Source of the DNA: Escherichia phage ukendt
Length of the DNA stretch: 64,000 nucleotides
Sequence record: NC_052661.1
Direction: 5' to 3' (one strand)
A model generated the notes under the pieces. The model was not told the origin of the DNA, made no database searches, and saw only the letters and a program-made list of their open reading frames with translations. The translations under genes were made by a program, and so were the position numbers. Positions 2,180-40,941 of this stretch are shown piece by piece. The first letter of the stretch is position 1; every line of letters begins with the position of its first letter.

Positions 2180-2379
2180 TACTCCTCCTCCTCCTCATTG
2201 AAGTCAATATCTGCAAGGAGTTCGAATTTACGGAAGTTACGACAACCTTCATAAATATAACAATCACGACAAACTGCTAGAACACTTGGGGGATATATAC
2301 CTCCCATCGGTGCGAATCGTTTTTCGTCATCATAACGGACACCAATGTCTTCATCAATTATATAGATACGGATTCTCAT
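2179..2379 (-). CDS. hypothetical protein
   Basis: 66 aa ORF ending in EEEEE. Confidence 0.45.
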   Translation of the reverse strand: MRIRIYIIDEDIGVRYDDEKRFAPMGGIYPPSVLAVCRDCYIYEGCRNFRKFELLADIDFNEEEEE

Positions 2380-3488
2380 TTACCAAGCCCTCGTTTCACA
2401 GCAGCTACCATCCCGTCTTCCAGAGATTGAACTTCATTAATATAATCAACACGAGCAGCACGGGCTTCCGTATTGATGCGGTTAGTTTCTTCCAACATCT
2501 TAACCAAGTTTTCCTGATCGTGACGCAGAGTTTCAATATCCAACACTTGACGGTTAGCCAGTGCTGCTGCTTCGATCTGATTCTGTGTGGCAAGATCGCT
2601 ACCCAGTTTAATTGCCAGGTTAAATTCATCAAGAACGTTATTCTGCGTCTCTGCTGCTTTCATTTGACGTAAGCTCTCGATATACATTGAGAAGTTAGCA
2701 GAGTAAGCAGGAATAACATTATTTACTATGTTACGCGCAGATCGCATTAAGCTTGCAGAAACTTTTTGCATACCTTGTACACGCGGTCCCATTTGGACAC
2801 ACAGTAGGCGCAATGCTTTTAAATCTGCAATACGAATCTCCAGAAGATCCAAAGTATCCCGGATCACTTGTCGCTGTTCTACTGCATCTTCTGGAAGAGC
2901 AGCCAAAGCTTGTTCTTCTTTTTCATAGGTTGCTGTTAGAAGCTGCATATCTCGGTTCAAACTTGCAGCATATTGTCCAATAGCTTGATGTAGCTTTTCA
3001 AGATATACCAAGGAATCTTCTTCTTTGCGAATATCCATTTGAAGGTTCTTTACCAACTCTTCAATACGGTTATTAACATTATCAAACTCCCCGAACAGGT
3101 CTTCTTTCATACCCATAACTTTTTTAATGAGTTTAGTAATACCTTTGCTTTGTTTAATAGAGTTTGGATCAAGTTGTTTTGCCTGTTTAATCAAAGCTGT
3201 GAGTCGTTCACTCATCTGATCGCCTTGATTACTACGTTGATGTTTTAATACCTCGGCATTCAAGGAACGCAAGGTTGTTCCTGCCTCTGCCCCAATCTCT
3301 TCGATCTCTTGTCGGGTCATAGAAGGCAAAACTGGAACTTCTTGCGGTGCTGCTGGTGCGTAAACAGGACTGGCATCTAACACGCTTGGAGCGAATACAG
3401 ATTTACTTGCATCTGTTGTTGCAGCAAATACGCTCATTTCAGGCTTCTTCTGACCACCAGTAGCTGCTTTTAAAAATGGACTTGTCAT
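2376..3488 (-). CDS. TelA-like (toxic anion resistance family) coiled-coil protein
   Basis: 370 aa, long heptad-rich helical regions, Ala/Pro-rich N-terminus; family call from overall resemblance only. Confidence 0.4.
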   Translation of the reverse strand: MTSPFLKAATGGQKKPEMSVFAATTDASKSVFAPSVLDASPVYAPAAPQEVPVLPSMTRQEIEEIGAEAGTTLRSLNAEVLKHQRSNQGDQMSERLTALIKQAKQLDPNSIKQSKGITKLIKKVMGMKEDLFGEFDNVNNRIEELVKNLQMDIRKEEDSLVYLEKLHQAIGQYAASLNRDMQLLTATYEKEEQALAALPEDAVEQRQVIRDTLDLLEIRIADLKALRLLCVQMGPRVQGMQKVSASLMRSARNIVNNVIPAYSANFSMYIESLRQMKAAETQNNVLDEFNLAIKLGSDLATQNQIEAAALANRQVLDIETLRHDQENLVKMLEETNRINTEARAARVDYINEVQSLEDGMVAAVKRGLGK

Positions 3489-4075
3489 TCTTCATTCTCC
3501 TCTTCTGCATCTCTTATATATGGTGAAACACCGTACTCTTTAGCTACTTTAACCCAATCGTCCCATTTATACAACCATAATTTTCCTTCGGTCCCTTCTT
3601 TATCTGATTTCAACCACATATTAGGTTGCTTACCTGGGTACATGCGATTAGGTTTACGATTATAACCTCTAACACATCTTGTCGCAAACCTATCTACCAG
3701 AACAAGAACATATTTATACTCGTGGTTCAACGGCTCTTTGGAAGTGGCTTTAGGATTAGCCCCTAATTCTGCTGCCAGTTTTTGCCAATGAGCACCGTGC
3801 CTACTAAACTTACCCATACAACCATCAATAGCATGAGCAATTTCGTGCTTCATTGTATCCACGATCATATCTCTTGTGGAGTTCTTATGCAAGTGCCAAT
3901 TTACAACAACAATTTTATCTCGGTAGTTGCACCAACCGAAAGAGTTATTCACTTTGTTTCTAACACAAGCTTTATATCCTGCTTCACGTAACATGTTGTA
4001 GTAAACAGGAAAATCTTCTTTTATTTCCTGCATCACTTCCCACCACAAGAGTTGCAAGTCTCTCTCGGTATGCAT
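3485..4075 (-). CDS. SprT-like zinc metallopeptidase
   Basis: 196 aa; HEIAH zinc-binding motif. Confidence 0.55.
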   Translation of the reverse strand: MHTERDLQLLWWEVMQEIKEDFPVYYNMLREAGYKACVRNKVNNSFGWCNYRDKIVVVNWHLHKNSTRDMIVDTMKHEIAHAIDGCMGKFSRHGAHWQKLAAELGANPKATSKEPLNHEYKYVLVLVDRFATRCVRGYNRKPNRMYPGKQPNMWLKSDKEGTEGKLWLYKWDDWVKVAKEYGVSPYIRDAEEENEE

Positions 4076-4078
4076 AAC

Positions 4079-4672
4079 TTACACCTTAAAAGCGAAATGC
4101 GTGGTCGTGGCTTCAAAATCAGGGCCAGATAAACTTGCACTGAAATCTGAAATATTTGTAATTAAAAAGCTTTTATACATACCTAACACAGCCACGCTTT
4201 CAATATCTTCTACTAACATTTCAATCATGTTAGAAACATGGCTGAACGTATAGTTTTGTTTTTTGATGGTGTAGAAAGAAAGACTCCCACCTGCTGTATA
4301 AGATACCTCTTCAAAATCTTTAATCGTATATTGTGTGCCATCAGTAAAGAAAATGGTAGCTTTATTAGTAGCACGTTTCTTGTTTTTTGGTCCTTTTTTA
4401 CGTTTACTGCGAGTAGGCAAACCGTTTGGAAATACTGTAGCTACAAATTCTTCAGGAGAAACCTCCTTACCGAAATCATAACCGTAAGAAACAGCGTCTA
4501 TAAACTCGTCGTCTTCATTTTTAAAATAATGAAAATAGGGCCAATTTGAGAGATTATCGAGCATCTTATGCTCATCCACAGCAGAGAACGTATCCCTCAA
4601 AGCACGTGTGATTTGCAAAGCATTAGGCAAACTTTTAACACCTGTAATGGAAGTACGAATAGAAATTGTCAT
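4079..4672 (-). CDS. hypothetical protein
   Basis: 197 aa ORF with basic patch RSKRKKGPKNKKR. Confidence 0.5.
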   Translation of the reverse strand: MTISIRTSITGVKSLPNALQITRALRDTFSAVDEHKMLDNLSNWPYFHYFKNEDDEFIDAVSYGYDFGKEVSPEEFVATVFPNGLPTRSKRKKGPKNKKRATNKATIFFTDGTQYTIKDFEEVSYTAGGSLSFYTIKKQNYTFSHVSNMIEMLVEDIESVAVLGMYKSFLITNISDFSASLSGPDFEATTTHFAFKV

Positions 4673-4686
4673 TGTTTTTCTCCTTA

Positions 4687-5124
4687 TTAACGTCGCTTGC
4701 TACGAGATGAACTCTTTTTACTTAAAGGGCTATTGTAAGATTTACGAGTTGTATAGCTACTATTTGTTTTAAAAGTTTGTCTCGGATTTTCATAAGTTTT
4801 TATCTCTTGTTTAGGCTTACCATAAAAATTAGTTTTCGGTTTAGGTGTATTATAATGCTTATTAATAATCGTTCTGTTATCGTTATAATCCCCACTGTTA
4901 CGATTACTACCACCACTCATCATATGCCCTAACAACATACCTGTAGCAAACTCACCAACACCGCTACTACTAGAACCGCCACCATTGTTGATAATAGTTG
5001 TATCTCCGTCAGATCCTTGTTGAGCGTATTGTTGAGGAGGTTGTTGGTATTGTGCAGGATTTGTTTCATCCTCGCAAGCTGTTAAAAAGATACAACCAAT
5101 TAAAATCAGGGCTAGTTTTTTCAT
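4687..5124 (-). CDS. lipoprotein, Gly/Ser-rich
   Basis: Start placed at internal Met giving signal peptide MKKLALILIGCIFLTAC with lipobox; RBS GAGGAA upstream. Confidence 0.55.
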   Translation of the reverse strand: MKKLALILIGCIFLTACEDETNPAQYQQPPQQYAQQGSDGDTTIINNGGGSSSSGVGEFATGMLLGHMMSGGSNRNSGDYNDNRTIINKHYNTPKPKTNFYGKPKQEIKTYENPRQTFKTNSSYTTRKSYNSPLSKKSSSRSKRR

Positions 5125-5311
5125 ATTTGCTTTCCTCATTTTGACTATTAATACATCTGTGTTTGAAATCTCCAGAGAAGCAATAAAGTTGCTCTCCATC
5201 TCGGTATAAACTCACTTTACTGCCGTTGATTACGCTTGTCAATACAAAAATTACAACAAACAACCCTATTGCAAAACAAATATTTTCAAACACAATCAAC
5301 AAGTATTTCAT
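5066..5311 (-). CDS. hypothetical membrane protein
   Basis: 81 aa ORF with hydrophobic N-terminus; start overlaps upstream stop. Confidence 0.35.
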   Translation of the reverse strand: MKYLLIVFENICFAIGLFVVIFVLTSVINGSKVSLYRDGEQLYCFSGDFKHRCINSQNEESKYEKTSPDFNWLYLFNSLRG

Positions 5312-5658
5312 TTTAAAAATACCTCATCATCAGTTTCATTATCCCAGAAGAACAAATCCCAACCATTCGGATCATTCCATTTGGCTGCTGGAGAAGTCCA
5401 TATTTGTTCGATATCAATATTCAAAACTTCACCGTTTCGTTTTGAAACAGCTTTAGTTAATTCCCAACGAGATACAGGCTCTACTTCCCCTGAACCACTC
5501 CCACAACAAGCTACCACGTTAGGAGGCAAATTAATTGGATCTTTGGTCACGATCATAACGCTTACCCCAGGGTAAACTTTTGAAAGATAATCTAAAACGT
5601 AATCCACATCACCAGATAAATCCCAAACAAGTTCTTGAATTTCATCAAAATTATTCAT
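5308..5658 (-). CDS. hypothetical protein
   Basis: 116 aa ORF, RBS AGGAGA upstream. Confidence 0.5.
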   Translation of the reverse strand: MNNFDEIQELVWDLSGDVDYVLDYLSKVYPGVSVMIVTKDPINLPPNVVACCGSGSGEVEPVSRWELTKAVSKRNGEVLNIDIEQIWTSPAAKWNDPNGWDLFFWDNETDDEVFLK

Positions 5659-5669
5659 AAGTCTCTCCT

Positions 5670-5696
5670 ATAAAATAGCCTCCCGAAGGAGGCTCA
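5670..5696 (-). terminator. rho-independent terminator after terC
   Basis: AGCCTCC-cgaa-GGAGGCT hairpin followed by a U-rich tract on the minus strand. Confidence 0.5.
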
Positions 5697-5700
5697 TCTA

Positions 5701-6675
5701 TTAAACAGCAGCTTCTTCTTTTTCAGGGAAGATAAAGCTTGCAATAACACCAAGAGCTAATGTGCCTAGAACAATCATCAGACTTACGTTAGGGGAAATA
5801 TCATGCGGGAGGAATGACCACTTGGCATGAAGTGTTTCACCGAACGGGTGATACATAAGTTTAGCACCGACAAATACCAGAACCACAGCAACAGCTTTCT
5901 CTAAGTGAACCAGATATTTCACAGCTACACTTAACACAAAGAAAAGTGCACGTAAACCAAGAACAGCCATCAGCATTGCAGAATAAACTAGCAGAGGTTC
6001 TTGTGTCACACCAATAACAGCCGGAACTGAATCAAAAGAGAACACAATATCTGTAAGCTCAATAACAAACACACAAAGAAGAGCAGGAGTTGCATATTTA
6101 ATACCATTCTTAATGGTAATGAACTTTTCACCATCCAGTGCGTTGTGCACAGGCAGAACTTTACCTACTAAACGAACAGCCCAATGTTTAGAGTAATCAA
6201 TATCTTCTTCTTCGTCACCACCTTTGATAATAGCAACGGCAGACCAAGCTACAATCAGACCGAACAACACTTGGACCGACCAATGCAGGTTAAACAAAGC
6301 TGTCCCTGCTGCAACAAAAACACCTCGGAAGACAATGGCACCTGCAATACCCCAAAGTAAAATCTTATGTTGGAGATGTGTGCTCTTAATTCCAAAGCTT
6401 GCAAAAATTGCCATGAACACCATTAGGTTATCTACAGAAAGACTCTTTTCCAACACATATCCACTTAGGAAAAGTGCGGCAAACTCTTTACCATGCTCTA
6501 CCCAAATGAATGCGTAATATCCTAAAGCTAAAGCAATCCAAAAAACAGACCAAAGCAAAGCAGATTTAATTCCAATTTCTTTATTCTCTTTATGACCAAA
6601 GAAATCGATACCAATAGACAATGCCAAAATACCAACTAAAACAACTACATCAATAATTGGGAAACCGAGTTGCAT
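5701..6675 (-). CDS. terC: TerC-family integral membrane protein
   Basis: 324 aa multi-pass membrane protein with EKSLSVDN and ELTDIVFSFDSVPAV motifs typical of TerC. Confidence 0.7.
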   Translation of the reverse strand: MQLGFPIIDVVVLVGILALSIGIDFFGHKENKEIGIKSALLWSVFWIALALGYYAFIWVEHGKEFAALFLSGYVLEKSLSVDNLMVFMAIFASFGIKSTHLQHKILLWGIAGAIVFRGVFVAAGTALFNLHWSVQVLFGLIVAWSAVAIIKGGDEEEDIDYSKHWAVRLVGKVLPVHNALDGEKFITIKNGIKYATPALLCVFVIELTDIVFSFDSVPAVIGVTQEPLLVYSAMLMAVLGLRALFFVLSVAVKYLVHLEKAVAVVLVFVGAKLMYHPFGETLHAKWSFLPHDISPNVSLMIVLGTLALGVIASFIFPEKEEAAV

Positions 6676-9800: not shown

Positions 9801-10251
9801 TCGCCGTTTTTGTCCATAATCTTTGATTATCTGACCCTCTGAAAGGTTTTGTGGTTGGATTGTTTATTTCATACTTTCCGTCTACAATAATGTCAACAAG
9901 ATTTTTAATATACAAAGGCACTTCCTCAAAAGTATATCCTGTATACACCATTATATCTTTGCTTGACCCATAAACGTCTCTAACCTTTTCTATAAGGTTT
10001 TTAACATTGTAAATATTCTGCGGATCTAATGGTTCTCCTCCTAAAATTGTTAAACCTTTTACAAACGGTCTTGACAAATCTTTTAAAACTTGCTCTACAT
10101 TTTCGTTAGTGAACGGTTTCCCATAAGAATAAGACCAGGCTTTCTGGTTAAAACAGCCACGACAACCGTGGCTACAACCACTAACCCAGAGGGAGCACCT
10201 AACTCCCTCACCATTAATAAGATCTACAGGTTCATATCCTGCAAAATTCAA
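9781..10251 (-). CDS. nrdG: anaerobic ribonucleotide reductase activating protein (radical SAM)
   Basis: 156 aa; CSHGCRGC cysteine cluster; immediately downstream of nrdD with overlapping stop/start. Confidence 0.75.
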   Translation of the reverse strand: MNFAGYEPVDLINGEGVRCSLWVSGCSHGCRGCFNQKAWSYSYGKPFTNENVEQVLKDLSRPFVKGLTILGGEPLDPQNIYNVKNLIEKVRDVYGSSKDIMVYTGYTFEEVPLYIKNLVDIIVDGKYEINNPTTKPFRGSDNQRLWTKTASGWQSD

Positions 10252-12062
10252 AGATGTTTCTCCCTTTGCAAAACTTCCTGCATTTTACCTTTGTTATAAG
10301 GCCGTGAATTAGGGGCAGAAAGATACCCTGATACACGTCTAACTACAGAAATAGTTTCTTCTTCATGGTTGCCACAATTAGGACACTCAAACCCTTTAGC
10401 CGTTGCCTTAAATTCTCCATGAAAACCACACTTAAAGCATTGATCCACGGGCTGATTAATACCAAAATAGTGAATATGTTCATAAGCGTAGTCTACTAAA
10501 GTCTCCAAAGCTTCTAAGTTATTCTTTAAGTTTGGTGTTTCGACATAACTTATGTTACCACCATTGCTAATCTGTGCAAAACCTGCTTCATAATCCCATT
10601 TTTCAAAAGGATTTGTTACCAACCATACAGGTTGATGAAAAGAATTAGTAAGATAATCTCTTTCTACCAGACCTGGATATTTTTCATTTAAAGCTGTTGC
10701 AAATTTATAGCACAAGGATTCTGCTGGAGTTCCATAAAGACTAAATGCCAACTTAGATCGTTCTTTAAACACAGCACACACATCTTTCATATGTTGCAGA
10801 ATGTTTTTACCTAGTGCCTTTTTATCTTTTTCCTCTGGATAAAGGATTTCCAAAGCTTCGGCAAGACCTACATAACCAATACTAATAGAAGCATAACCAC
10901 CTTCAAACAAAGCACCAATTTCATCGTTGGCATTTAAACGCGCTAAAGCCCCTTCCATGAAAAGAATAGGGTTTTCAGATGCTTTGGTATGTCTGATACG
11001 GTTTACACGTAGCATGTGAGCATCGTAGGCTATCTCCATATGTTTATTAAGAAGATCGGTGAAAGATTCTCCTTTACTTCTCGCTTCCGCAGCAATCAGA
11101 GGCAAGTTGATAGAAACTACTCCAAGGTTGAATCGTCCATCATATTTTTCTCCTTGTTCGGTGGCATAGTACGACAAAAAGGAACGACAACCCATACTCG
11201 TAACAGTACCATCTGCTGATCCCGTAACTTCTTTGTTCAAAGGAACAGAAATAAAGTCTGGATAAATACGATCAGCACAACATGCCAAAGCTTGTTGCTT
11301 AAGGTCATAGTTAGGATCACTAGGTTTCATGTTAACGCCTTCTTGTAAAAAGAAAATAACTTTAGGGAATACAGGCGTTACATGATCTTTGCCTAGACCA
11401 TTACTATGCACTTTAAGATAGTTAGCTGTGATCATTCTGCCAAAAACAGAGGTATCCAGACCCATACTGATTGTAATAAAAGGAGATTGTCCATTTACAC
11501 TCATTAAAGTATTAACCTGATACAAGAGAGTTTGCATAGCATCATATACATCTTGTTCGGTCATTTCCAGGGCTTCTTTCCTTGCATAACAGCCGTAGCG
11601 ACGTTTGGTTATCTCCATGTTTTTAAGGAAACTAGCTTCAACATAAGGACTAAGACCTTTATCAATGTGCGCACACGTTTGACCTCCATACTGACTGGAG
11701 GCAACAGCTTGAATGATTTGAGTTAGCACTGTAGTAGCTACCCCAATAGATTTTGGTTTTTCTATCTGTGCGGCTCCGATCTTAAAACCATTCTCTAACA
11801 TATCTTGATAATTAACAAGACAACAGTTTGTAAGAGGAGAGAGCAGATAATCCAAGTCGTGAATATGCCCAAAACCTTCTGTATGCCATTCTGACAAGTT
11901 TTTTGGCAGTATCTGTGTCATTGCCATATGTTTGCTTAAAATCCCCGCCAAGAGATCCCTATGCGTGTTAACGAGGTGGGAAGGTTTATTTGCATTCTCT
12001 CTAGTGTATGTTTCTGAAGTGCGATCTAAAAAAGAAAAAACATCTTGGTACAAATCTTTCAT
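10248..12062 (-). CDS. nrdD: anaerobic ribonucleoside-triphosphate reductase (class III)
   Basis: 604 aa; C-terminal glycine-radical motif RRVSGYL preceded by CxxC..CxxC zinc ribbon. Confidence 0.85.
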   Translation of the reverse strand: MKDLYQDVFSFLDRTSETYTRENANKPSHLVNTHRDLLAGILSKHMAMTQILPKNLSEWHTEGFGHIHDLDYLLSPLTNCCLVNYQDMLENGFKIGAAQIEKPKSIGVATTVLTQIIQAVASSQYGGQTCAHIDKGLSPYVEASFLKNMEITKRRYGCYARKEALEMTEQDVYDAMQTLLYQVNTLMSVNGQSPFITISMGLDTSVFGRMITANYLKVHSNGLGKDHVTPVFPKVIFFLQEGVNMKPSDPNYDLKQQALACCADRIYPDFISVPLNKEVTGSADGTVTSMGCRSFLSYYATEQGEKYDGRFNLGVVSINLPLIAAEARSKGESFTDLLNKHMEIAYDAHMLRVNRIRHTKASENPILFMEGALARLNANDEIGALFEGGYASISIGYVGLAEALEILYPEEKDKKALGKNILQHMKDVCAVFKERSKLAFSLYGTPAESLCYKFATALNEKYPGLVERDYLTNSFHQPVWLVTNPFEKWDYEAGFAQISNGGNISYVETPNLKNNLEALETLVDYAYEHIHYFGINQPVDQCFKCGFHGEFKATAKGFECPNCGNHEEETISVVRRVSGYLSAPNSRPYNKGKMQEVLQREKHL

Positions 12063-14323: not shown

Positions 14324-15916
14324 TTAACGATCCTCTCTGATTTGATTAATCTTACGAGCAAGGGCAGCTATAAGTTTATCTTCTTCGGATATAGGAGCCG
14401 TGCTCTTACCTAAACGATGCATGTCTAGAATCTCTTGAACAGTCCGGTTCCATTGTAGACATTTAATACAACGTGTATGTGCAACATACAGAAGATTTCG
14501 TTCTGATTCTTCAAGACCTACCCACTCACCCTTCTTATCATAATTAGAAGGAAAGTCATTTGCAACAATAACCTGATCCCACTCCAAACCTTTTGATTTA
14601 TGGGCCGTAGTTAAAGTAACTTTAGCCGTTGGAGAGTTACGGTGCATACGTAAAGTGTATGCAATATTATTAGCTTTACCAGAAACAACAATGTTTAAAA
14701 GTCGTTTTGCATCAGGATCTGATTCTGCACACTCTACAAATTCTTCCCAAGAAGTGTAAGGTAGAACTGTCTCATGCTTAACTTTGTCCAAATCACCTCT
14801 ACGTAAAGCATTAACACTATCAACCATAGAAATGAAATCTTTGGTATCTACGTTAATAATAATCTCTTCTCCGTTAGCGATTCGATCCATAGCTTCGAGC
14901 AACAGGGTCAAATTCTTACGGAAAATAATGGTGTAAGGTTTACTATAATCTACCACATCAGAATGAAAACTTCCAGTGACAGTATCATAACCTTTCCCTA
15001 CCAGCGGATGCTTCAGAGGTGAGCGATCAGAAAGGATCGCATTAGCAATGTCCGCAACTTTAGGACCAAAGCGAAAACAAGCTGTCAGAGGCAACTCAAC
15101 CCCATATGTAGCCGTTTGCTTCATCATGTTCTGGCTTCCACGGAACTGATAAATACTCTGAAATTCATCACCCACAACAACAATACGTTTAGCCGATTTA
15201 GCATTGCGAAGGATAGACAGGAATGCAGGGTTAACATCCTGGAATTCATCTCCAAAAATAATATCGTATCCTAAATCTTCTTTACTCAATTCAAAGAGTT
15301 TCACATAGGTGTCATGAGTCATAATGGTTTCTGATTTAGGATCAATACGCTCACGCCAAAGTTGCTTCGCATATTTAACAACTTCGTTAATAAGTTTTTG
15401 TTCGTTGATGTTCTTACGTTTAAGATCTGACATATGCACTTTAGGAAAATGTTTATGTCCAATATGTTCATCGTCAGAAAACTCATATTTAGCTAAAGTT
15501 TGTTTTACCATTAACCCGATCATTGCACGAGTCAGTAGCACTTTACCATTCTTATCAATCAAGTTCTGAATCTTGAATTTTTTGGCAATCTCACTACCAG
15601 TTCCAGCTACGTTAACATATTGGCCTTCTGGACGAGACAATTTGTGTCGAAGGTTTTGTGGAAGACGCTGGTAACAGATTGAATGTAGCGTTCGGCACAT
15701 AACATTAGGCGGCATTTTACGTCGAGCTTCCTCTGCCATACTTTTGTTAAACGCCAAGTATAGAATACTATCATTTGTGCCATTAGCCAACATATACAGT
15801 GTTGACGTTTTACCTGATCCAGATTTAGCTTGAATTGTAACGAAACGATTTTCTTGATACCCACTTTCAATAGCGTATTGTTCATCGGTAGGTGTAAAAC
15901 TCAATTGTGTAGACAC
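14324..15916 (-). CDS. SF1 DNA helicase (UvrD/Dda-like)
   Basis: 530 aa; Walker A AKSGSGKTS near N-terminus, DEFQ-type Walker B. Confidence 0.6.
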   Translation of the reverse strand: MSTQLSFTPTDEQYAIESGYQENRFVTIQAKSGSGKTSTLYMLANGTNDSILYLAFNKSMAEEARRKMPPNVMCRTLHSICYQRLPQNLRHKLSRPEGQYVNVAGTGSEIAKKFKIQNLIDKNGKVLLTRAMIGLMVKQTLAKYEFSDDEHIGHKHFPKVHMSDLKRKNINEQKLINEVVKYAKQLWRERIDPKSETIMTHDTYVKLFELSKEDLGYDIIFGDEFQDVNPAFLSILRNAKSAKRIVVVGDEFQSIYQFRGSQNMMKQTATYGVELPLTACFRFGPKVADIANAILSDRSPLKHPLVGKGYDTVTGSFHSDVVDYSKPYTIIFRKNLTLLLEAMDRIANGEEIIINVDTKDFISMVDSVNALRRGDLDKVKHETVLPYTSWEEFVECAESDPDAKRLLNIVVSGKANNIAYTLRMHRNSPTAKVTLTTAHKSKGLEWDQVIVANDFPSNYDKKGEWVGLEESERNLLYVAHTRCIKCLQWNRTVQEILDMHRLGKSTAPISEEDKLIAALARKINQIREDR

Positions 15917-27254: not shown

Positions 27255-27310
27255 TATTTTAACTTTTTTCATTTTTAGAACAAAGGTGTCACTTTGTAGC
27301 ACAGAAATAA

Positions 27311-27345
27311 GGCTCCTACAGCACCGTAGAGAGCCTGTTATTTTA
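27311..27345 (+). terminator. rho-independent terminator after the NADAR gene
   Basis: GGCTCCTAC...GTAGAGAGCC hairpin followed by TGTTATTTTA. Confidence 0.45.
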
Positions 27346-27496
27346 TCCTATACAAACCCTTGTCTTTTTCAGTTTGCATCACTAGGATTCGATCTGAGTG
27401 GGTTCCTGAAGGTCTGCCAATAAGATTAAAGGTTATCTCAAATTCCCACTACCTATTATCTCAAAAATCCCTCAAATTATTTAAACTTTTTAAGAA

Positions 27497-27536
27497 TTTA
27501 CAAAAGTGAAAGTTGAAAACCAAAATTTAAAGTTTA
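27497..27536. repeat. direct repeat, copy 1 (TTTAAAGTTTA-containing unit)
   Basis: TTTACAAAAGTGAAAGTTGAAAACCAAAATTTAAAGTTTAG, imperfectly repeated at 27636. Confidence 0.5.
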
Positions 27537-27635
27537 GGAAAATTATCTTAAAATGTTAGATACAAAACAAAACTCAAAAGTCAAGGAAAATTTTAAAAAT
27601 TTTGCGCGCCCACAGTATTTAAAGTTTTTTTGCTT

Positions 27636-27675
27636 TTACAAAAATGAAAGTACAAAAGCAAAATTTAAAGTTTAC
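27636..27675. repeat. direct repeat, copy 2
   Basis: TTTACAAAAATGAAAGTACAAAAGCAAAATTTAAAGTTTAC. Confidence 0.5.
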
Positions 27676-27722
27676 AAAAATTTTTATGCAGGTGAAAATG
27701 AGAAGAGTTCTCATATGGAAAT

Positions 27723-27745
27723 GCAAATGATAATGATTCGCATTT
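27723..27745. promoter_or_regulatory. Fur-box-like operator (site A)
   Basis: GCAAATGATAATGATTCGCATTT, about 14 of 19 to the Fur consensus, 60 bp upstream of site B. Confidence 0.4.
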
Positions 27746-27761
27746 AAGTTTATAAATGAGA

Positions 27762-27803
27762 TTGATTCTTATTTAATAAGGTAAATGATAATCATTCTCA
27801 TTT
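27762..27803 (+). promoter_or_regulatory. promoter with Fur-box-like operator across the -10 (site B)
   Basis: TTGATT, 18 nt, TGATAAT; palindrome AAATGATAATCATTCTCATTT matches the Fur consensus GATAATGATAATCATTATC at 16 of 19 positions. Confidence 0.5.
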
Positions 27804-28021
27804 AGAGAATGACGCGCAGGGGCGGTGTTTGTCTCGCGCTCCCGTGTCCCCTCGCCATGTAATAAGAATAACAGATCCAGCCAGGAAAGCAAGAGATTAT
27901 TTTATCTTTACATTTCTTTACAAATATATAGCGCCCAGCCTACCGGCGATCAACCTTCCAACCAGTGCCTCTGGTATGTTAGCCCCGCCTTTACGCCGTG
28001 GGGTGGCGCTTCCTCTTCTGT

Positions 28022-33076: not shown

Positions 33077-33223
33077 ATGAATACATCTAATCGCGCAGAA
33101 AAAATTCAATCTTCCAAGATCCGCAAGGCCTGGAACGAGGAAGTGATCCGCAAAGGCGACAAGCGCAATAAAACAAAGCGCGGGAAGAGTGACAAATATA
33201 ATTGGATGGATTTAGAGGATTAA
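33077..33223 (+). CDS. cassette small basic protein
   Basis: 48 aa Lys/Arg-rich; promoter-hairpin module; followed by terminator. Confidence 0.4.
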   Translation: MNTSNRAEKIQSSKIRKAWNEEVIRKGDKRNKTKRGKSDKYNWMDLED

Positions 33224-33230
33224 CATAACA

Positions 33231-33257
33231 AGGGCGCATCAAGCGCCCTTTCTTTTT
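33231..33257 (+). terminator. rho-independent terminator inside the cassette array
   Basis: AGGGCGC-ATCAA-GCGCCCT followed by TTCTTTTT. Confidence 0.6.
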
Positions 33258-36432: not shown

Positions 36433-36732
36433 ATGGAAACTATCGCTATTGTTACCGTAGAAAAACTGGTTGTTGGTGATGTATTCGCGTTAATGGTGCC
36501 TAACAGCAGCAAGCTGGGCGCTTATGAAGTAATGGATCATAAAAATGAATCATTTGGCGACGGTTGCACAATGGCGGTAAAATCTTTAAAGGATGGAATT
36601 ATCCGCCAGGCTAACTGGCACAAAGGGAATCAAGTCGGTTTAATATCAGCTAATTTCTTGCCAGAAGAGCAAACGTTAGACCAACTATCAGGCGGTAAGA
36701 CGTTAGCCGAACTACTGGAAACAGCGATCTAA
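36433..36732 (+). CDS. cassette small protein
   Basis: 99 aa; promoter-hairpin module. Confidence 0.5.
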   Translation: METIAIVTVEKLVVGDVFALMVPNSSKLGAYEVMDHKNESFGDGCTMAVKSLKDGIIRQANWHKGNQVGLISANFLPEEQTLDQLSGGKTLAELLETAI

Positions 36733-36739
36733 TCGACAA

Positions 36740-36755
36740 GGGGCGGCAACGCCCC
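36740..36755 (+). promoter_or_regulatory. cassette-type GC hairpin without recognisable promoter
   Basis: GGGGCGGCAACGCCCC between stop at 36732 and ATG at 36786. Confidence 0.35.
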
Positions 36756-36785
36756 CATTAAACGCAATAGGAAGAGGATAGACAC

Positions 36786-37076
36786 ATGAAAAAGATGATC
36801 GCAGTAGTTGCCCTGGTTGTTGGTATTAACGCGCCTGTAATGGCGAAAGAGTTGCCAGAATCCATCACGTTAACCGATATCAACGCAATAAACCGGATCG
36901 GCGTTAATTATCGCCTATGCCTTGCCGCTAAAACTTTCCAGGACGGCACAACAGAGTACTACGGATTCGAGGGTACCCGCTGCGGTGAGCTTGCACGCGA
37001 CCTTAAGGAAGATCCAGACCTTGAGGCCATACCGATGACCGTAAACGGTAAAGCTTACGTAAACCGCCAACAATGA
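36786..37076 (+). CDS. cassette secreted protein
   Basis: 96 aa; signal peptide MKKMIAVVALVVGINAPVMA. Confidence 0.5.
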   Translation: MKKMIAVVALVVGINAPVMAKELPESITLTDINAINRIGVNYRLCLAAKTFQDGTTEYYGFEGTRCGELARDLKEDPDLEAIPMTVNGKAYVNRQQ

Positions 37077-37207
37077 GAAAGGTAATCATCACAATGGGGA
37101 TCGTAGTAGCAACGCTGGCGCTTATCCCCTTCATGGTTGAACATGTGCTGATCAGTGTTGTCCTTGTAGTCAGTGACCTATTGGAAACGGTTGGCACCTG
37201 GTTTTAA
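37073..37207 (+). CDS. cassette hydrophobic peptide
   Basis: 44 aa ORF overlapping upstream stop (ATGA). Confidence 0.35.
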   Translation: MRKVIITMGIVVATLALIPFMVEHVLISVVLVVSDLLETVGTWF

Positions 37208-37381
37208 GATAATAAATAGGGCTTGCAATAGTCCTATTTTTTGTTATACTTATTGAACGGGCGGCACCTGGGAGCAGGGGAAGATAATCACCGGAAGACC
37301 CCGCTATATATTGATAACTAACGCCTATCAAACAACAAAACATCAAAGGAACAAACTATCAAATCTTTACAATTCTACCTA

Positions 37382-37410
37382 TTGACACCGGATCACGCTT
37401 ACATTATTAT
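37382..37410 (+). promoter_or_regulatory. sigma70-like promoter with degenerate hairpin
   Basis: TTGACA, 17 nt, TATTAT, then ACGTAGGGC without the complementary arm. Confidence 0.45.
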
Positions 37411-37456
37411 TTATCACGTAGGGCAAATCATTTTAAACGGTAAACGAGGAATCACC

Positions 37457-37840
37457 ATGAGCAATATCATCAACCTGGCAGCGACTGTAAACGGTAAAGA
37501 CTTTAACGGCGCTGTAGACCGTGATCCTATGTGGTGCTTGTCAGTGTTTAAAGGTGACTTGGTTGAAGTTAGAACAACCGAAGGGTATAGCGATGATTAT
37601 AAATGCGAGATCCATTTACATAACTGGTACACGGGTAAAACTTATGCGCTGAATCATGCGTTTATCGGCAAGGTTGAATATAGAGAAATGATCGACGATG
37701 AAACGGGGCAGGATTTTAGCGAAAACGTTTATATTCGTTCCGAGACATTAGCCGAACGTTTGATCGAGAAAATGAAAGCAAAAAATAAAATTAATTTATC
37801 TCATTGGATTGATATAACAAACGATCCAGCTTATCAGTAA
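37457..37840 (+). CDS. cassette protein
   Basis: 127 aa; promoter without hairpin; followed by terminator. Confidence 0.5.
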   Translation: MSNIINLAATVNGKDFNGAVDRDPMWCLSVFKGDLVEVRTTEGYSDDYKCEIHLHNWYTGKTYALNHAFIGKVEYREMIDDETGQDFSENVYIRSETLAERLIEKMKAKNKINLSHWIDITNDPAYQ

Positions 37841-37855
37841 ATAACATTTCATACC

Positions 37856-37882
37856 AGGGCGCACAAAGCGCCCTTTCTTTTT
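37856..37882 (+). terminator. rho-independent terminator at the right end of the cassette array
   Basis: AGGGCGC-ACAAA-GCGCCCT followed by TTCTTTTT; near-identical to the terminator at 33231. Confidence 0.6.
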
Positions 37883-38019
37883 GCCCGAACAATGTTGATA
37901 GCTTTCGCCTATGAAAAACCGACACAGAACAAAACTGAATAAATCACGGTATCAAGCTAATCGACCATTAAACGAATAACCATACATCCCAGGGCAACAG
38001 GCTGTTAGAGAGCTATTTA

Positions 38020-38360
38020 GAGCGGTTAAAATCGATCAACAACCAACAACAAACCATCAAAAACACCCTTTTACCTCCTTTCTAGTGCAATGATAACCAT
38101 TATCATCTACCCATGATTATCTATGCAATATAAGCGCATAATTATAATGTTGATAATAGTTCGCAACAACTAACCAACAAACAACATAAAACAATAAGCA
38201 AACTAATCATAATCAAAGGAATAATAGCAAGATGATTGATAACGACAAACAATCAAACCATGATGAATACTAAGCAAAACAACGATAACACGACAAAACA
38301 ACCAACTAACGAACAATAACAAACGAAACCATTAAAATAACAACTATTAGCAAAATAGTG
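38020..38360. repeat. A+C-rich low-complexity tract with AAC/CAA repeats
   Basis: Long runs such as CAACAACCAACAACAAACCATCAAAAACACCC with almost no G on the plus strand and no ORF. Confidence 0.55.
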
Positions 38361-38489
38361 CCTAAATGAAATCATTACAAAACGAATCATTCACAGGATC
38401 ATCATTAGCACGCTATGCCGGACACATAGCGAGCTAATAATAAGCCAACTACACCCCAACAATCATAACCATCGGTGACGGTTATTTCT

Positions 38490-38520
38490 TGTTACTGCGT
38501 AGCTTGCAATAATTGCAAGC
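38490..38520. repeat. perfect palindrome CTTGCAATAATTGCAAG
   Basis: 17-bp inverted repeat within the non-coding region. Confidence 0.45.
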
Positions 38521-38843
38521 GTAATGACGCTTACACTTATTGCGCTGGCTTATTATTAGCATTATATGTAATTACCAAGATCATAACATTAGCGCAATAA
38601 CAATAATCATTGTGGTAATTACAAGATGAAATCATTAGCAAGATGAATAATTGCACGTAGCAACATGAGCGAATAGCGACAGGTTGCATAGTGTGCACAT
38701 AGTGTATAAACATACAAGAAAATAAAGGCTAATCTTTTGGGGGCGAATACTATCGCGTAGCGATATGTTGAGCACCTTCTCTTAAACGTAAATAAAATCA
38801 GAAAATTCTTGATTTATTTTAGTTTTTATGTTAATAAACGTTT

Positions 38844-38864
38844 AAATAATAATCATTCTCATAT
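38844..38864. promoter_or_regulatory. Fur-box-like operator (site C)
   Basis: AAATAATAATCATTCTCATAT shares the core AATCATTCTCAT with sites B and D. Confidence 0.4.
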
Positions 38865-39002
38865 AAATAATAGTCTGCTTGTCATGAGCGGGATTAGTTG
38901 ACAATGTTCCGTCATATGATGAAGTTGCCAAACCATTGATAAATAAGTGTTTGTGTGATTTATAATCAAGTGGCCCACCTTGTCGCTATGTTGGCATGAG
39001 CC

Positions 39003-39044
39003 TTGCATAAGTCATTGAATACGAATGATAATTATTCTCATTCG
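39003..39044 (+). promoter_or_regulatory. promoter with Fur-box-like operator across the -10 (site D)
   Basis: TTGCAT, 17 nt, TGATAAT; palindrome CGAATGATAATTATTCTCATTCG. Confidence 0.5.
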
Positions 39045-39374
39045 CATGATATTTGGGAATTGTCGCTGCGTGGACCTGACGGCCCGAAAATTCGCGTTAA
39101 GCACTTCTTACGTATGCGCCATGATTTTTGCCATATGATATTGATTCTATTAGATATTCTTGCCATGAAACAAGGTGTGTCGAAATAATCTCTCCCCGTA
39201 GATATTTTGGGTTACTTTTTATACAAGAGTGGGGTGTCAAAAATAATCGGTATATATGGGATAATTGATAGGAATCCCCTATGGTAATTCGATTGTAATT
39301 CCTTAAGATTGATCGTATGATGTTGGTGATTGATGATTGCCATGAAAGATGGCTAACGATGAGAGGAGATTGTC

Positions 39375-39749
39375 ATGCAAGAGAGTAAAAATATTCCGTT
39401 GAGTAGTGCAACATTGCTTCGCTTCTATAAAGCATGGATTGCCAACTATCCTGCAATGAATCGCACAACGAGTGGCTTATGTGGTTGTCTGGTAGATTAT
39501 GTAGATGATTTTGTTGGTGAGACAACTAGAGAAGAAGATAGAAGATGGCGTGATCATTTGTTGGACCGTTTGAAATATGAAATGAGGAAACAATTTACAT
39601 GTGCAGGGCTGGACTACAATCTTCCGTTCAATGCAGATTGCATGGATTACCTTTCAGAGTGTATAAACTTGGCGTGTCATACCAACACGTTACGTCTTCA
39701 ATGGGTGAAAGATCGGATTGAAGATGCAAATAATGCTTGCATTGAATAA
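39375..39749 (+). CDS. family A paralog (WVKDR motif)
   Basis: 124 aa; GLCxxL...LPF...RLQWVKDRI shared with four other ORFs. Confidence 0.55.
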   Translation: MQESKNIPLSSATLLRFYKAWIANYPAMNRTTSGLCGCLVDYVDDFVGETTREEDRRWRDHLLDRLKYEMRKQFTCAGLDYNLPFNADCMDYLSECINLACHTNTLRLQWVKDRIEDANNACIE

Positions 39750-39798
39750 AGATGTTTGTATAATGGATGACATAACAGATAGCCAATGAGGAGATGAA

Positions 39799-40008
39799 AT
39801 GAAGAATTTGAAAACTGTCACAATGTTCTTGACTGATCCTACACGTGTGCAAGCACTGGCTAAAGCCAGCCGTGTAGCTGTAGAATTCCAAAACTTTAAG
39901 CCGTCCGTTGTGACAGGCAGTGAAACGTGTGTTATCGATTTCATTAACGAATACTTCCGAGGGAATCCGGTTGGTCGTTACTTTATTAAGGGTCTGAAGG
40001 ATGCATAA
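39799..40008 (+). CDS. hypothetical protein
   Basis: 69 aa; RBS GAGGAG. Confidence 0.5.
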   Translation: MKNLKTVTMFLTDPTRVQALAKASRVAVEFQNFKPSVVTGSETCVIDFINEYFRGNPVGRYFIKGLKDA

Positions 40009-40231
40009 CATGAAACGCATGAAAATTCGTATTGAGAATGGTGGTGGTTATAAAGGATTGGCACATGCAAAATTTCCACTTGTGTTGGAAGCTACAGTGG
40101 AATACAGTGGGCTTGCTCATGTGCGATTCTCGAAGATGATGGAAGTGCAGGAATGGTTTTGGGACGAGATAGATGCACGAGAAGGAGAAGATTATGTTTT
40201 CTTTCCTCACGAATATAACATTGTCTATTAA
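40001..40231 (+). CDS. family B paralog (EGxDYVFF motif)
   Basis: 76 aa; WFWDE...EGEDYVFF shared with 44336..44557. Confidence 0.5.
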   Translation: MHNMKRMKIRIENGGGYKGLAHAKFPLVLEATVEYSGLAHVRFSKMMEVQEWFWDEIDAREGEDYVFFPHEYNIVY

Positions 40232-40243
40232 AGGTTGTGTGCA

Positions 40244-40483
40244 ATGATCACACCACAACAGAATGAAGCAGCAATGGATCTTCTTGATAGTTTGTATTTC
40301 GATAATTGGTACTCTGAATGTGAATGGATGAATGTGCAAACTCTGAAAGAGAAGACAGAAGCGTTGATTACCGTAGATCAATTTCTTGCAGAGACGGAAA
40401 GAATGAATTATGATATGGCATCTCGCGCACGACGCGTTTCCATTTTCAATAAAATGTTAGCATTATGGGGAGGTAGAAAATGA
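40244..40483 (+). CDS. hypothetical protein
   Basis: Start refined to ATG 40244. Confidence 0.45.
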   Translation: MITPQQNEAAMDLLDSLYFDNWYSECEWMNVQTLKEKTEALITVDQFLAETERMNYDMASRARRVSIFNKMLALWGGRK

Positions 40484-40941
40484 GACAATTCACTATACTG
40501 GCAGCTTATGTGCAATGTGTTCACGACTATGTTAGTGCTCATACAGGTGTGCTGGAAGTTACCAGTAAAATTGAAGGTAATATGGGTACTGTCTGTGTGC
40601 AACATACTTTATCCAATGTGCCGTTTAAAGTGTTCACTGTTGTAGCTGCCGATTACAATCGTGTAGATGTGCGTTTCTTGGATCATAATTTTCGTAACGC
40701 ACTAGATAATATCGAAGATTATCTTCCCGTGAAACCTTTGTCATTTCCACCGAGTCGTGCAAATAATGTAGTGACAAACCTTAATGAAAGGAATGTGGCT
40801 ATGCACAAAAAAGTTCGTCAATTGAAAATGCTGATGGAAATGCAAGAAGAGATTGAAAAAGAACTGAAAGAAGATTTCGGTATGCTTCCAAAAGACGCTT
40901 TGAAATGGTATGATGAACTAGGAGGAGAAAGTTATGAATAA
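40480..40941 (+). CDS. hypothetical protein
   Basis: 153 aa ORF. Confidence 0.5.
   Translation: MRQFTILAAYVQCVHDYVSAHTGVLEVTSKIEGNMGTVCVQHTLSNVPFKVFTVVAADYNRVDVRFLDHNFRNALDNIEDYLPVKPLSFPPSRANNVVTNLNERNVAMHKKVRQLKMLMEMQEEIEKELKEDFGMLPKDALKWYDELGGESYE

Follow-up and report, generated by a model that had tools for sequence, protein, structure and literature searches.

Why does the genome of Escherichia phage ukendt carry a long, strand-asymmetric tract without genes, and what might such a tract do? We studied this question in a stretch of 64,000 nucleotides of its sequence (record NC_052661.1; hereafter the 64-kb window, whose positions are used throughout), where a tract rich in A and C on the plus strand covers positions 38020-38360. 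A first-pass annotation, made from the letters of the sequence, had put forward an RNA that binds Hfq, a replication origin or unwinding element, or a packaging or DNA-transfer signal. We find that the tract lies in a gap that is the junction between genome copies, beside the sequence that is terminally repeated in close relatives, and that it is accompanied by a conserved fold and by oriented repeats. Our analysis leaves us evenly poised on the proposal that the tract belongs to a cis-acting control region of the DNA at the phage chromosome end, with packaging or terminus processing as the most likely task. The region most likely helps to cut, package or copy the genome ends rather than to soak up Hfq.

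The genome junction around the A+C-rich tract

By the similarity of positions 37800-39400, the source phage is phAPEC8-like, of the genus Phapecoctavirus in the subfamily Stephanstirmvirinae. This interval matched 123 phage records, and the top matches, 95-98% identical over the full length, were all phAPEC8-like. The tract is enclosed in a gap of 1.53 kb (37841-39374) that is free of open reading frames (ORFs) and is flanked by the genes at 37457-37840 (plus strand) and 39375-39749, inside a long run of small plus-strand genes. The synteny of the gap was seen across 138 records. The equivalent 1.5 kb of phAPEC8, between genes 0017 and 0018, is annotated with a terminator only and no gene.

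The ends of many related records fall within this gap. The first 329 bases of the Schickermooser record equal its last 329, and both map to 38771-39099 of the window with 96-98% identity. Mt1B1_P17 has a 328-bp repeat at both record ends, which maps to 38771-39098, the record of 10C3 starts at 38771 and ends at 38770, and many other related records open or close at 38770/38771 or at 39090-39099. Direct terminal repeats have been reported for Schickermooser (328 bp, PMC6563267) and for the Justusliebigvirus BME3 (342 bp, PMC12210895), and short ones were described as "like other Stephanstirmvirinae members" (PMC12695924). Since the repeats of the relatives map to 38771-39099, the gap is a concatemer junction, with the tract at 410-750 bp from the right end. 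In packaged DNA the tract would be part of roughly 930 bp of unique, non-coding sequence that follow the last gene and precede the right-hand repeat copy. The recognition of the gap as a genome junction recasts the whole interpretation of the first-pass annotation.

Both edges of the repeat carry nearly the same word (^ marks the boundary). The left boundary, between 38770 and 38771, reads ...ATGTTG^AGCACC and the right one ...GCGTTA^AGCACT, so that GTTG^AGCAC at 38767-38775 and GTTA^AGCAC at 39096-39104 stand in direct, not inverted, orientation. The word GTTRAGCAC has three plus-strand copies in the 64-kb window, two of them at the repeat boundaries. The boundaries of BME3, from the sister genus, are TTGTTG^AGCC and CGCGTT^AAGCAC. 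That GTTR^AGCAC is shared by the two edges suggests a single cleavage specificity for both. The left word belongs to a module that recurs in relatives: TGTTGAGCnnnTTCTC is kept in 19 distinct loci, about 15 of which have a hairpin of changing sequence that ends 1-4 nt before it. The order in these loci is GGGGCGAA, the hairpin (in about 15 of the 19), 1-4 nt and TGTTG^AGCnnnTTCTC, which corresponds to 38740-38776 in the window. The hairpin shows complete sequence turnover between lineages; in the window it is the palindrome ATCGCGTAGCGAT of the first-pass annotation. Two related loci, L020 and L030, have two copies of the module about 80-90 nt apart. In the BME3 record (PP239276), 788 bp of the left end recur near the right end, besides the 342-bp terminal repeat, and DTR-L as annotated is 73 bp out of register with the repeat as defined by sequence; the duplication and the offset are probably artefacts of assembly or annotation.

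The strand asymmetry noted in the first-pass annotation is real and far from chance. The tract has 69.5% A+C (A 48.1%, C 21.4%, G 10.0%, T 20.5%), which makes it the extreme among 341-nt stretches of the window (z=4.6; mean 50.4%, standard deviation 4.2%; maximum 71% at 38133-38473). The bias grows in the core at 38160-38360 (A 55%, C 20%, G 9.5%, T 15%; 75% A+C) and peaks at 81% in the best 100 nt. The description "almost only A and C" was therefore right about the bias and overstated in its wording, as about 30% of the bases are G or T. All strings quoted in support were found (CAACAACCAACAACAAACCATC at 38037, AACGAACAATAACAAACGAAACC at 38308, CTTGCAATAATTGCAAG at 38503-38519, ATCGCGTAGCGAT at 38752-38764, and ATCATTAGCA at 38401 and 38631); of these, both palindromes and both ATCATTAGCA copies lie to the right of 38020-38360 and not within it. 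The claim that the tract has no ORF holds for real genes and not for short ORFs, which include three of 36-45 amino acids on the minus strand of the tract. The region is AT-rich (70%). Folding of the plus strand gave a minimum free energy of -6.7 kcal/mol for 201 nt (z=-0.2), and folding of the minus strand gave -18.4 kcal/mol (z=+2.0), weaker than 198 of 200 shuffles.

Comparison of the window with phiWec188 and PsgM04F, per 100 nt, singles out this part of the gap. Identity is 84-97% per 100 nt over 37850-38350, without any indel at 37880-38363. The tract itself is 91.5-94% identical to that of the phiWec group, again without indels; the first-pass annotation had proposed to look for it in related phages, and there it is, highly conserved. 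The interval equivalent to the repeat is only about 70-71% identical to these two phages (54-74% per 100 nt), identity in the alignable genes downstream (39650-40450) is 55-80%, and the upstream gene reaches about 40% against the phiWec group, where a different gene sits. The tract is the best-conserved stretch of its neighbourhood. Among eight Phapecoctavirus-type sequences 46 of its 341 columns vary, and these are distributed as 17, 15 and 14 over the three codon phases. It is non-coding and more constrained than its neighbours.

The gap of the Justusliebigvirus (phi92-like) phages has the same position and order, and its recognisable blocks are A (37856-37990), B (38085-38165) and C (38398-38562) only. 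Block B is the only part of the tract that is conserved there (about 70%); in place of the A+C-rich core there are different A/T/C-rich repeats, with about 60% A+C. On the plus strand of all relatives examined, the sequence to the left of the folded element described below is A+C-rich (mostly 50-73%) and that to its right is G+T-rich (A+C mostly 37-55%). As this switch occurs in all relatives, the asymmetry is tied to the junction: the switch is general and its extreme value is specific to a lineage.

A conserved fold and oriented heptamers beside the repeat

Between the tract and the repeat there is a folded element of six helices (Table 1). We aligned 17 sequences, from Phapecoctavirus, the phiWec group, Justusliebigvirus, two Klebsiella phages, a Citrobacter phage and IMG/VR contigs. 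The fold has 46 pairs, with 98.4% of the cells of the alignment paired, and 12 pairs changed on both sides among these phages. None of 500 shuffles equalled it, and controls in which the alignment was slid were 21-47% paired. Perfect hairpins that are specific to lineages are inserted at one site of the element. The palindrome CTTGCAAT-A-ATTGCAAG has an alternative partner: its central three bases covary with TTATTGC at 38537-38543 (TAA/TTA, TTA/TAA, CAA/TTG, TGA/TCA), and hence the alternative long hairpin is also real.

A covariance model of the element (R1) found a single copy in the window and a single copy in every one of 26 related loci. It did not match a Mydovirus (Vequintavirinae) locus with a homologous upstream gene, nor four loci from metagenomes or metagenome-assembled genomes that share the palindrome only. 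A scan of both strands of 36500-40500 against Rfam 15 (E≤1) gave no match. In the eight lineages for which we could place both the element and the repeat boundary, 180-320 nt lie between them, the element being on the left. It is a structured element conserved across the sampled Stephanstirmvirinae, with its compensatory changes at 38398-38568 and not in the A+C-rich tract.

Which strand folds is less clear, and the sequence leans towards the minus strand. Folded as single-stranded DNA, the element has z=-9.45 on the minus strand and -6.67 on the plus strand, and the minus strand is the more stable one in all 23 sequences (mean -77.9 vs -59.6 kcal/mol). Mismatches in the helices are mostly C.A or A.C on the plus strand, which are G.U on the minus strand (15 vs 5 cells), and two G.U pairs are kept on the minus strand of the alternative hairpin. 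Counted by independent events, this bias is about 5:1 and not significant, and the G+T richness of the minus strand would by itself lead one to expect the energy advantage.

The second companion of the tract is the heptamer AAYCATT. It occurs eight times on the plus strand of the gap and never on the minus strand, against 0.5-0.6 expected, and none of 1000 shuffles reached eight. The array spans 38095..38937, through the tract, around the folded element and into the terminal repeat: two copies are in the tract, two or three before the folded element, two after it and two in the repeat. The relatives labelled as phages of E. coli, Serratia and Pseudomonas that we checked have 4-8 copies on the plus strand and 0-1 on the minus strand; those of Citrobacter and Klebsiella are less biased (2-5 plus, 2-3 minus). 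In Justusliebigvirus the same place is taken by a tandem 16-nt array, GTAAYCATTKCATACA, that contains AAYCATT. Oriented repeat arrays are typical of the binding sites of terminases or initiators.

The gap also holds sequences that resemble Fur boxes. With at most five mismatches to GATAATGATAATCATTATC, nine Fur-box-like 19-mers are found in the gap against 0.2 expected (best 15/19 at 38086), and 22 in the whole window against 5.7 expected (best 16/19 at 27781, just upstream of the gene at 27829). Such sites lie at 38086, 38596, 38842, 39021-39027 and 27723-27787, and the repeat of phiWec188 has another, GATAATGATAATTATTCTC, with 16/19 matches as counted by eye. Candidate explanations are sites for the Fur protein of the host, operators bound by a phage regulator, or a mere side effect of the AATCATT word.

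Table 1. Features of the genome junction and of its flanks in the window.
Feature	Position	Strand	Basis or remarks
Last right-arm gene, T4 Gp30.8-like protein	37457-37840	+	Ended by the intrinsic terminator
Intrinsic terminator AGGGCGC-ACAAA-GCGCCCT + T-run	37856..37874	+	7-bp stem with 6 G-C pairs, tail TTCTTTTTGC
Block A, non-coding	37875..38019	+	Conserved in Phapecoctavirus and Justusliebigvirus (alignments)
A+C-rich tract, non-coding, structure-poor on both strands	38020..38360	+	Composition, conservation, folding
Block B: AATGATAACCATTATCAT (Fur-box-like, 15/19 at 38086) and TATGCAAT...GCATAA	38085..38165		Alignment, tract query positions 39-187
Eight AAYCATT heptamers	38095, 38327, 38370, 38385, 38605, 38630, 38851, 38931	all +	Word count
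Folded element, about 170 nt	38398..38568	undecided, leans minus	RNAalifold, pair counts, covariance model
Hairpin H1	38411-38417 with 38425-38431		
Long-range helix P2, 15 bp	38433-38447 with 38546-38560		Four pair-type combinations
CTAC/GTAG helix	38449-38452 with 38499-38502		
Hairpin H3	38465-38473 with 38477-38485		Sequence fully turned over, complementarity kept
Palindrome	38503-38519		Or alternative pairing of GCAATAA (38506-38512) with TTATTGC (38537-38543)
AAGCGT/ACGCTT pairing	38517-38522 with 38527-38532		
Variable-length hairpin	38523-38540		
Terminus module: hairpin ATCGC-GTA-GCGAT (38752-38764), one base, TGTTG^AGCACC	38752..38776	+	Record ends of Schickermooser, Mt1B1_P17 and 10C3
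Sequence equivalent to the direct terminal repeat	38771..39099		Mapped from Schickermooser and Mt1B1_P17; expected at both ends of packaged DNA
Word at the right boundary, CGTTA^AGCAC, repeating that at the left boundary (GTTG^AGCAC) in direct orientation	39095..39104	+	String search
Left-end leader, G+T-rich, precedes the first left-arm gene (39375-39749)	39100..39374	+	Composition, promoter scan, repeats

Possible roles: packaging signal, RNA or replication element

Phages T7 and T3 have a short direct terminal repeat, with pacB in the unique DNA of the right end and pacC, where cleavage occurs, at the boundaries of the repeat. Shorter repeats are arrayed beside this terminal repeat, and its duplication goes through a hairpin intermediate. 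The junction described here is similar in several ways: linear DNA that ends in a short, exact repeat (329 bp here against 160 bp in T7), a gene-free unique side of the right-end repeat that holds short oriented repeat arrays, small inverted repeats at the repeat boundary, and defined cleavage positions (taken here from the record ends of relatives). The differences are also clear. This phage is a myovirus of 150 kb that is not known to have an RNA polymerase of its own, its right-end non-coding region is much longer (0.9 kb), and there is no sequence similarity; unlike T7 and T3, it has a covarying multi-helix fold and a strongly strand-asymmetric tract of 200-350 nt. Because the layout is analogous to the ends of T7 and T3, we favour a role in terminase recognition and terminus processing. 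Of the candidate roles in the first-pass annotation, the packaging or DNA-transfer signal gains most from the position of the tract at the right end.

Directly observed features support this proposal: the position relative to the termini, as mapped in close relatives, the conservation of the tract and its non-coding nature, the oriented repeats, the covarying fold and the boundary words. The concatemer junction would read, in order, as the last right-arm gene with its terminator, about 0.9 kb of conserved non-coding DNA, the hairpin with TGTTG^AGC, the terminal repeat, CGTTA^AGCAC and the left-end leader. The terminase, probably through its small subunit, would recognise the oriented repeats and the conserved blocks of the unique right-end region, in the manner of pacB in T3 and T7. 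It would then cut at the GTTR^AGC words that bound the repeat, and packaging would start there. The tract, easily melted, strand-asymmetric and carrying part of the oriented array, may serve as a spacer or an unwinding segment, and the folded element may form on single-stranded or extruded DNA while the repeat is duplicated. We infer the binding of terminase, the chemistry of cutting, the direction of packaging and the role of the fold.

Other known systems resemble single parts of this arrangement. The sites of terminase small subunits (cosB R of lambda, the pacL and pacR boxes of SPP1, the pac hexamers of P1) are like the AAYCATT array, a candidate here, in having several copies in one orientation, scattered across some hundreds of bp beside the cleavage site; unlike this phage, lambda, SPP1 and P1 use cos or headful packaging and not exact terminal repeats, and no signature of intrinsic bending is seen here. 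Signals of initiation on single strands and hairpin signals (the complementary-strand origins of G4 and phiX174, plasmid ssi and Frpo, the hairpin promoters of N4) are like the fold in being covarying multi-hairpin structures of 100-170 nt, with 3-nt loops and possible strand specificity. They differ from it in acting on DNA that is naturally single-stranded, or as supercoil-extruded hairpins read by a virion RNA polymerase. The pRNA of phi29 is also an element of about 170 nt by the genome end, with a long closing helix around a multi-branch junction and a structure that partly outlasts its sequence. In contrast to our phage, phi29 is a protein-primed podovirus without such terminal repeats, and its pRNA is abundant and has a known promoter, whereas no promoter is seen here; as to sequence and helix layout, the comparison covered the Rfam scan, which was negative.

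Several points weigh against a role in packaging. The termini assigned to the phage in the window come from relatives whose repeat is 96-98% identical. Schickermooser carries phiWec-type variants in the tract, and recent recombination may therefore be partly behind its high conservation. The extreme A+C bias is specific to Phapecoctavirus and the phiWec group, so that the bias itself may not be the functional feature. The phasing of A-tracts at 10-11 bp, as in bent DNA, is not significant in the tract (p~0.28), which does not suggest a bent pac site. A search of the literature found no study of packaging and no data on terminase binding for this subfamily. Finally, the covarying long-range helix implies folding of a single strand, which recognition of double-stranded DNA by terminase does not need, and an RNA or a signal for replication priming would explain it no less well.

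The alternative that survives best, although we regard it as unlikely, is a gene for a non-coding RNA. The fold and the tract would be transcribed together, more likely leftward from the minus strand, into an RNA with a structured 5' domain and a long U/G-rich tail that acts in trans or in cis in end maintenance, packaging or regulation. The strong covariation in six helices, including the 15-bp long-range one, together with the inserted lineage-specific hairpins, is the classic mark of a folded nucleic acid, and the better folding of the minus strand in all 23 sequences and the mismatches that become G.U pairs on it, two of them kept in the alternative hairpin, point the same way. Yet the energy advantage is expected from the G+T richness of that strand and the G.U bias falls short of significance. 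Scans of both window strands, and of the minus strand upstream of the fold in 12 lineages, found no sigma-70-like promoter that is conserved at a constant spacing. A leftward transcript would also lack a conserved terminator, as the flank of the stem at 37856 is T-rich on the minus strand only in phAPEC8-type genomes. No Rfam family matched, and most hairpin loops have 3 nt, a size commoner in the hairpins and palindromes of DNA than in those of RNA. A search of the literature for a transcriptome of the subfamily found none.

We consider a replication element at the chromosome end, be it an origin, a DNA-unwinding element or a single-strand priming signal, somewhat less likely than an RNA gene. 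The fold would form on the exposed lagging-strand template of a fork that enters from the right end and would recruit a primase or primosome, with the tract as a zone of unwinding or loading. The AT-richness of the region, its lack of structure on both strands and its oriented, iteron-like heptamers agree with this, and the minus-strand lean of the fold suits a signal on a template strand. So does the local switch from A+C-rich to G+T-rich sequence across the junction in all relatives, which has the polarity found at bidirectional origins. T7 has secondary origins beside both its ends, which also counts for such an element. However, there is no switch of skew here at the scale of the genome: the cumulative GC skew of the window changes direction near 22 kb and near 56 kb, at points where the genes switch orientation, and the paper on phage rV5 links skew changes to transcription only. 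No initiator gene adjoins the region, and another ORF-free gap, at 27255-27828, is at least as origin-like with its direct repeats of about 50 nt. These two repeats (TTTACAAAAnTGAAAGT..AAAATTTAAAGTTTA) start at 27497 and 27635. Four promoter-like sites, a G-free run that is the longest in the window (27433-27493) and an inverted repeat of 8 bp (TCATTCTC-ATTTA-GAGAATGA) are also present in this gap, which has the look of a promoter cluster or an origin.

A little lower still we place the possibility that the fold at 38398-38568 and the adjoining tract are an undescribed functional nucleic acid dedicated to the chromosome end of a large myovirus. This could be a non-coding RNA for packaging or end maintenance, which in function would recall the pRNA of phi29, or a telomere-like single-stranded DNA that primes the copying of the terminal repeat.

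It is improbable, in our view, that the tract works as a back-up terminator or insulator dependent on Rho, whereby C-rich, G-poor, unstructured read-through RNA would load Rho and transcription would be halted before it ran through the junction to reach the packaging site and early genes of the following copy. On the plus strand C is about twice as frequent as G for some 600 nt after the last gene, as opposed to more G than C in the surrounding plus-strand genes. Positions 38031-38108 contain 24 C, 4 G and 14 YC dimers, and the plus-strand RNA would be unstructured. But the core of the tract is A-rich rather than C-rich, with 2-5 YC dimers per 78 nt, the intrinsic terminator upstream is strong as it stands, and a compositional signal leaves 92-97% identity without indels unexplained.

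The sponge RNA for Hfq or another chaperone, rich in (A-R-N)n and the leading idea of the first-pass annotation, is very improbable. The plus strand is indeed A-rich, would be unstructured as RNA and has two A-R-N runs of 4-5 triplets. However, such runs are at the level expected from composition: two of at least four triplets were matched by 113 of 500 shuffles that preserve (dinucleotide) composition, so the tract is not enriched in ARN-type repeats. With no conserved sigma-70 promoter found and a strong terminator just upstream, the sponge is left unsupported. The tract has no similarity to sequences in E. coli genomes, which argues against host mimicry, and no Rfam family. Its position at the junction and the oriented DNA repeats point to a role at the level of DNA, and a purely compositional sponge needs no high, indel-free conservation. 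Least probable of all are small hydrophobic peptides from the minus-strand ORFs 38142-38252, 38203-38322 and 38253-38390: these ORFs of 36-45 amino acids exist and are annotated as coding sequences (CDS) in ETEC-TG and PsgM04F, but their variable columns have no codon periodicity, the longest has a 17-nt indel in the phiWec group, no Shine-Dalgarno sequence was seen by eye, an A-poor strand yields long ORFs by chance, and the curated records of phAPEC8, Schickermooser and nieznany annotate no gene here.

Flanking features and what the junction means for these phages

The gene to the left of the gap (37457-37840) has 85-99% DNA identity to Justusliebigvirus phages, and phAPEC8 and the phiWec group have an unrelated gene (phAPEC8_0017) at its position. 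That unrelated genes occupy one place points to mosaicism right at the chromosome end. The terminator that follows is also annotated in the records of phAPEC8, Schickermooser and ASO2A, and a second copy of 36 nt lies at 33222-33257. Together with the first ~90 nt beyond it (37857-37964), it is about 80% identical in Av-05, 24-2-1 and FBKp34, phages from outside the subfamily. Block A has BLAST identities of 91-96% in Phapecoctavirus and phiWec phages and of 78-83% to Justusliebigvirus. It contains a small hairpin, AACAG-G-CTGTT at 37996-38006, in the place of which Justusliebigvirus has TAAG-GCG-CTTA.

On the other side of the repeat, a promoter-like site occupies 39160-39189 of the left-end leader, which also carries TTGCCATGA twice, from 39160 and from 39337; the fuller form of these repeats is TTGCCATGAAAnnnGG at 39160-39175 and 39337-39352. 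The first of these overlaps the promoter-like TTGCCA-18-AATAAT. An additional copy of TTGCCATGA is found in phAPEC8 and in ETEC-TG.

A scan of the window for tRNA and tmRNA genes found none, a tandem-repeat finder gave nothing beyond trivial low-score arrays, and there is no terminase gene within the 64 kb. The minus-strand genes further away (2376-6675, 10248-12062 and 14324-15916) encode proteins of the TelA- and TerC-like tellurite-resistance family, an NrdD anaerobic ribonucleotide reductase and a UvrD-type helicase.

Some remarks concern the annotation of related records. In ETEC-TG, PsgM04F, the related loci L016 and L017 and other records the gap is filled with 6-8 short CDS calls on both strands; going by their sequences, the calls in the junction are probably spurious. 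The records of Pseudomonas phage PsgM04F and Campylobacter phage B15 are Phapecoctavirus-like despite their host labels. The 20-nt "PHIRE promoter" annotated in phAPEC8, GTAGGGCGGCAATGGTGCCG, is the hairpin GGCGGCA-ATGG-TGCCGCC and occurs at 62-81, 1293-1312 and 2708-2727 of the phAPEC8 locus L001; one copy follows closely on a good sigma-70 promoter. In appearance it is closer to a stem-loop at the 5' end of transcripts than to a promoter.

The terminal repeats of these phages were already known. In the literature searched we found no description of the architecture of the junction, its boundary words, the oriented heptamers or the fold; the rV5 paper just marks a "non-coding" box. The fold, supported by covariation, is a new structured element that is lacking in current RNA libraries. 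The phAPEC8-like and phi92-like phages are widely isolated, are candidates for therapy and are used in screens for defence systems, and their genomes are deposited with arbitrary start points. Recognising the junction gives a rule by which these genomes can be oriented and annotated, and candidate cis elements for packageable vectors or engineered phages. The processing of ends with short exact repeats is understood only for podoviruses of the T7/T3 type. The junction described here offers a testable model of how such ends may be recognised, cut and duplicated in a large myovirus.

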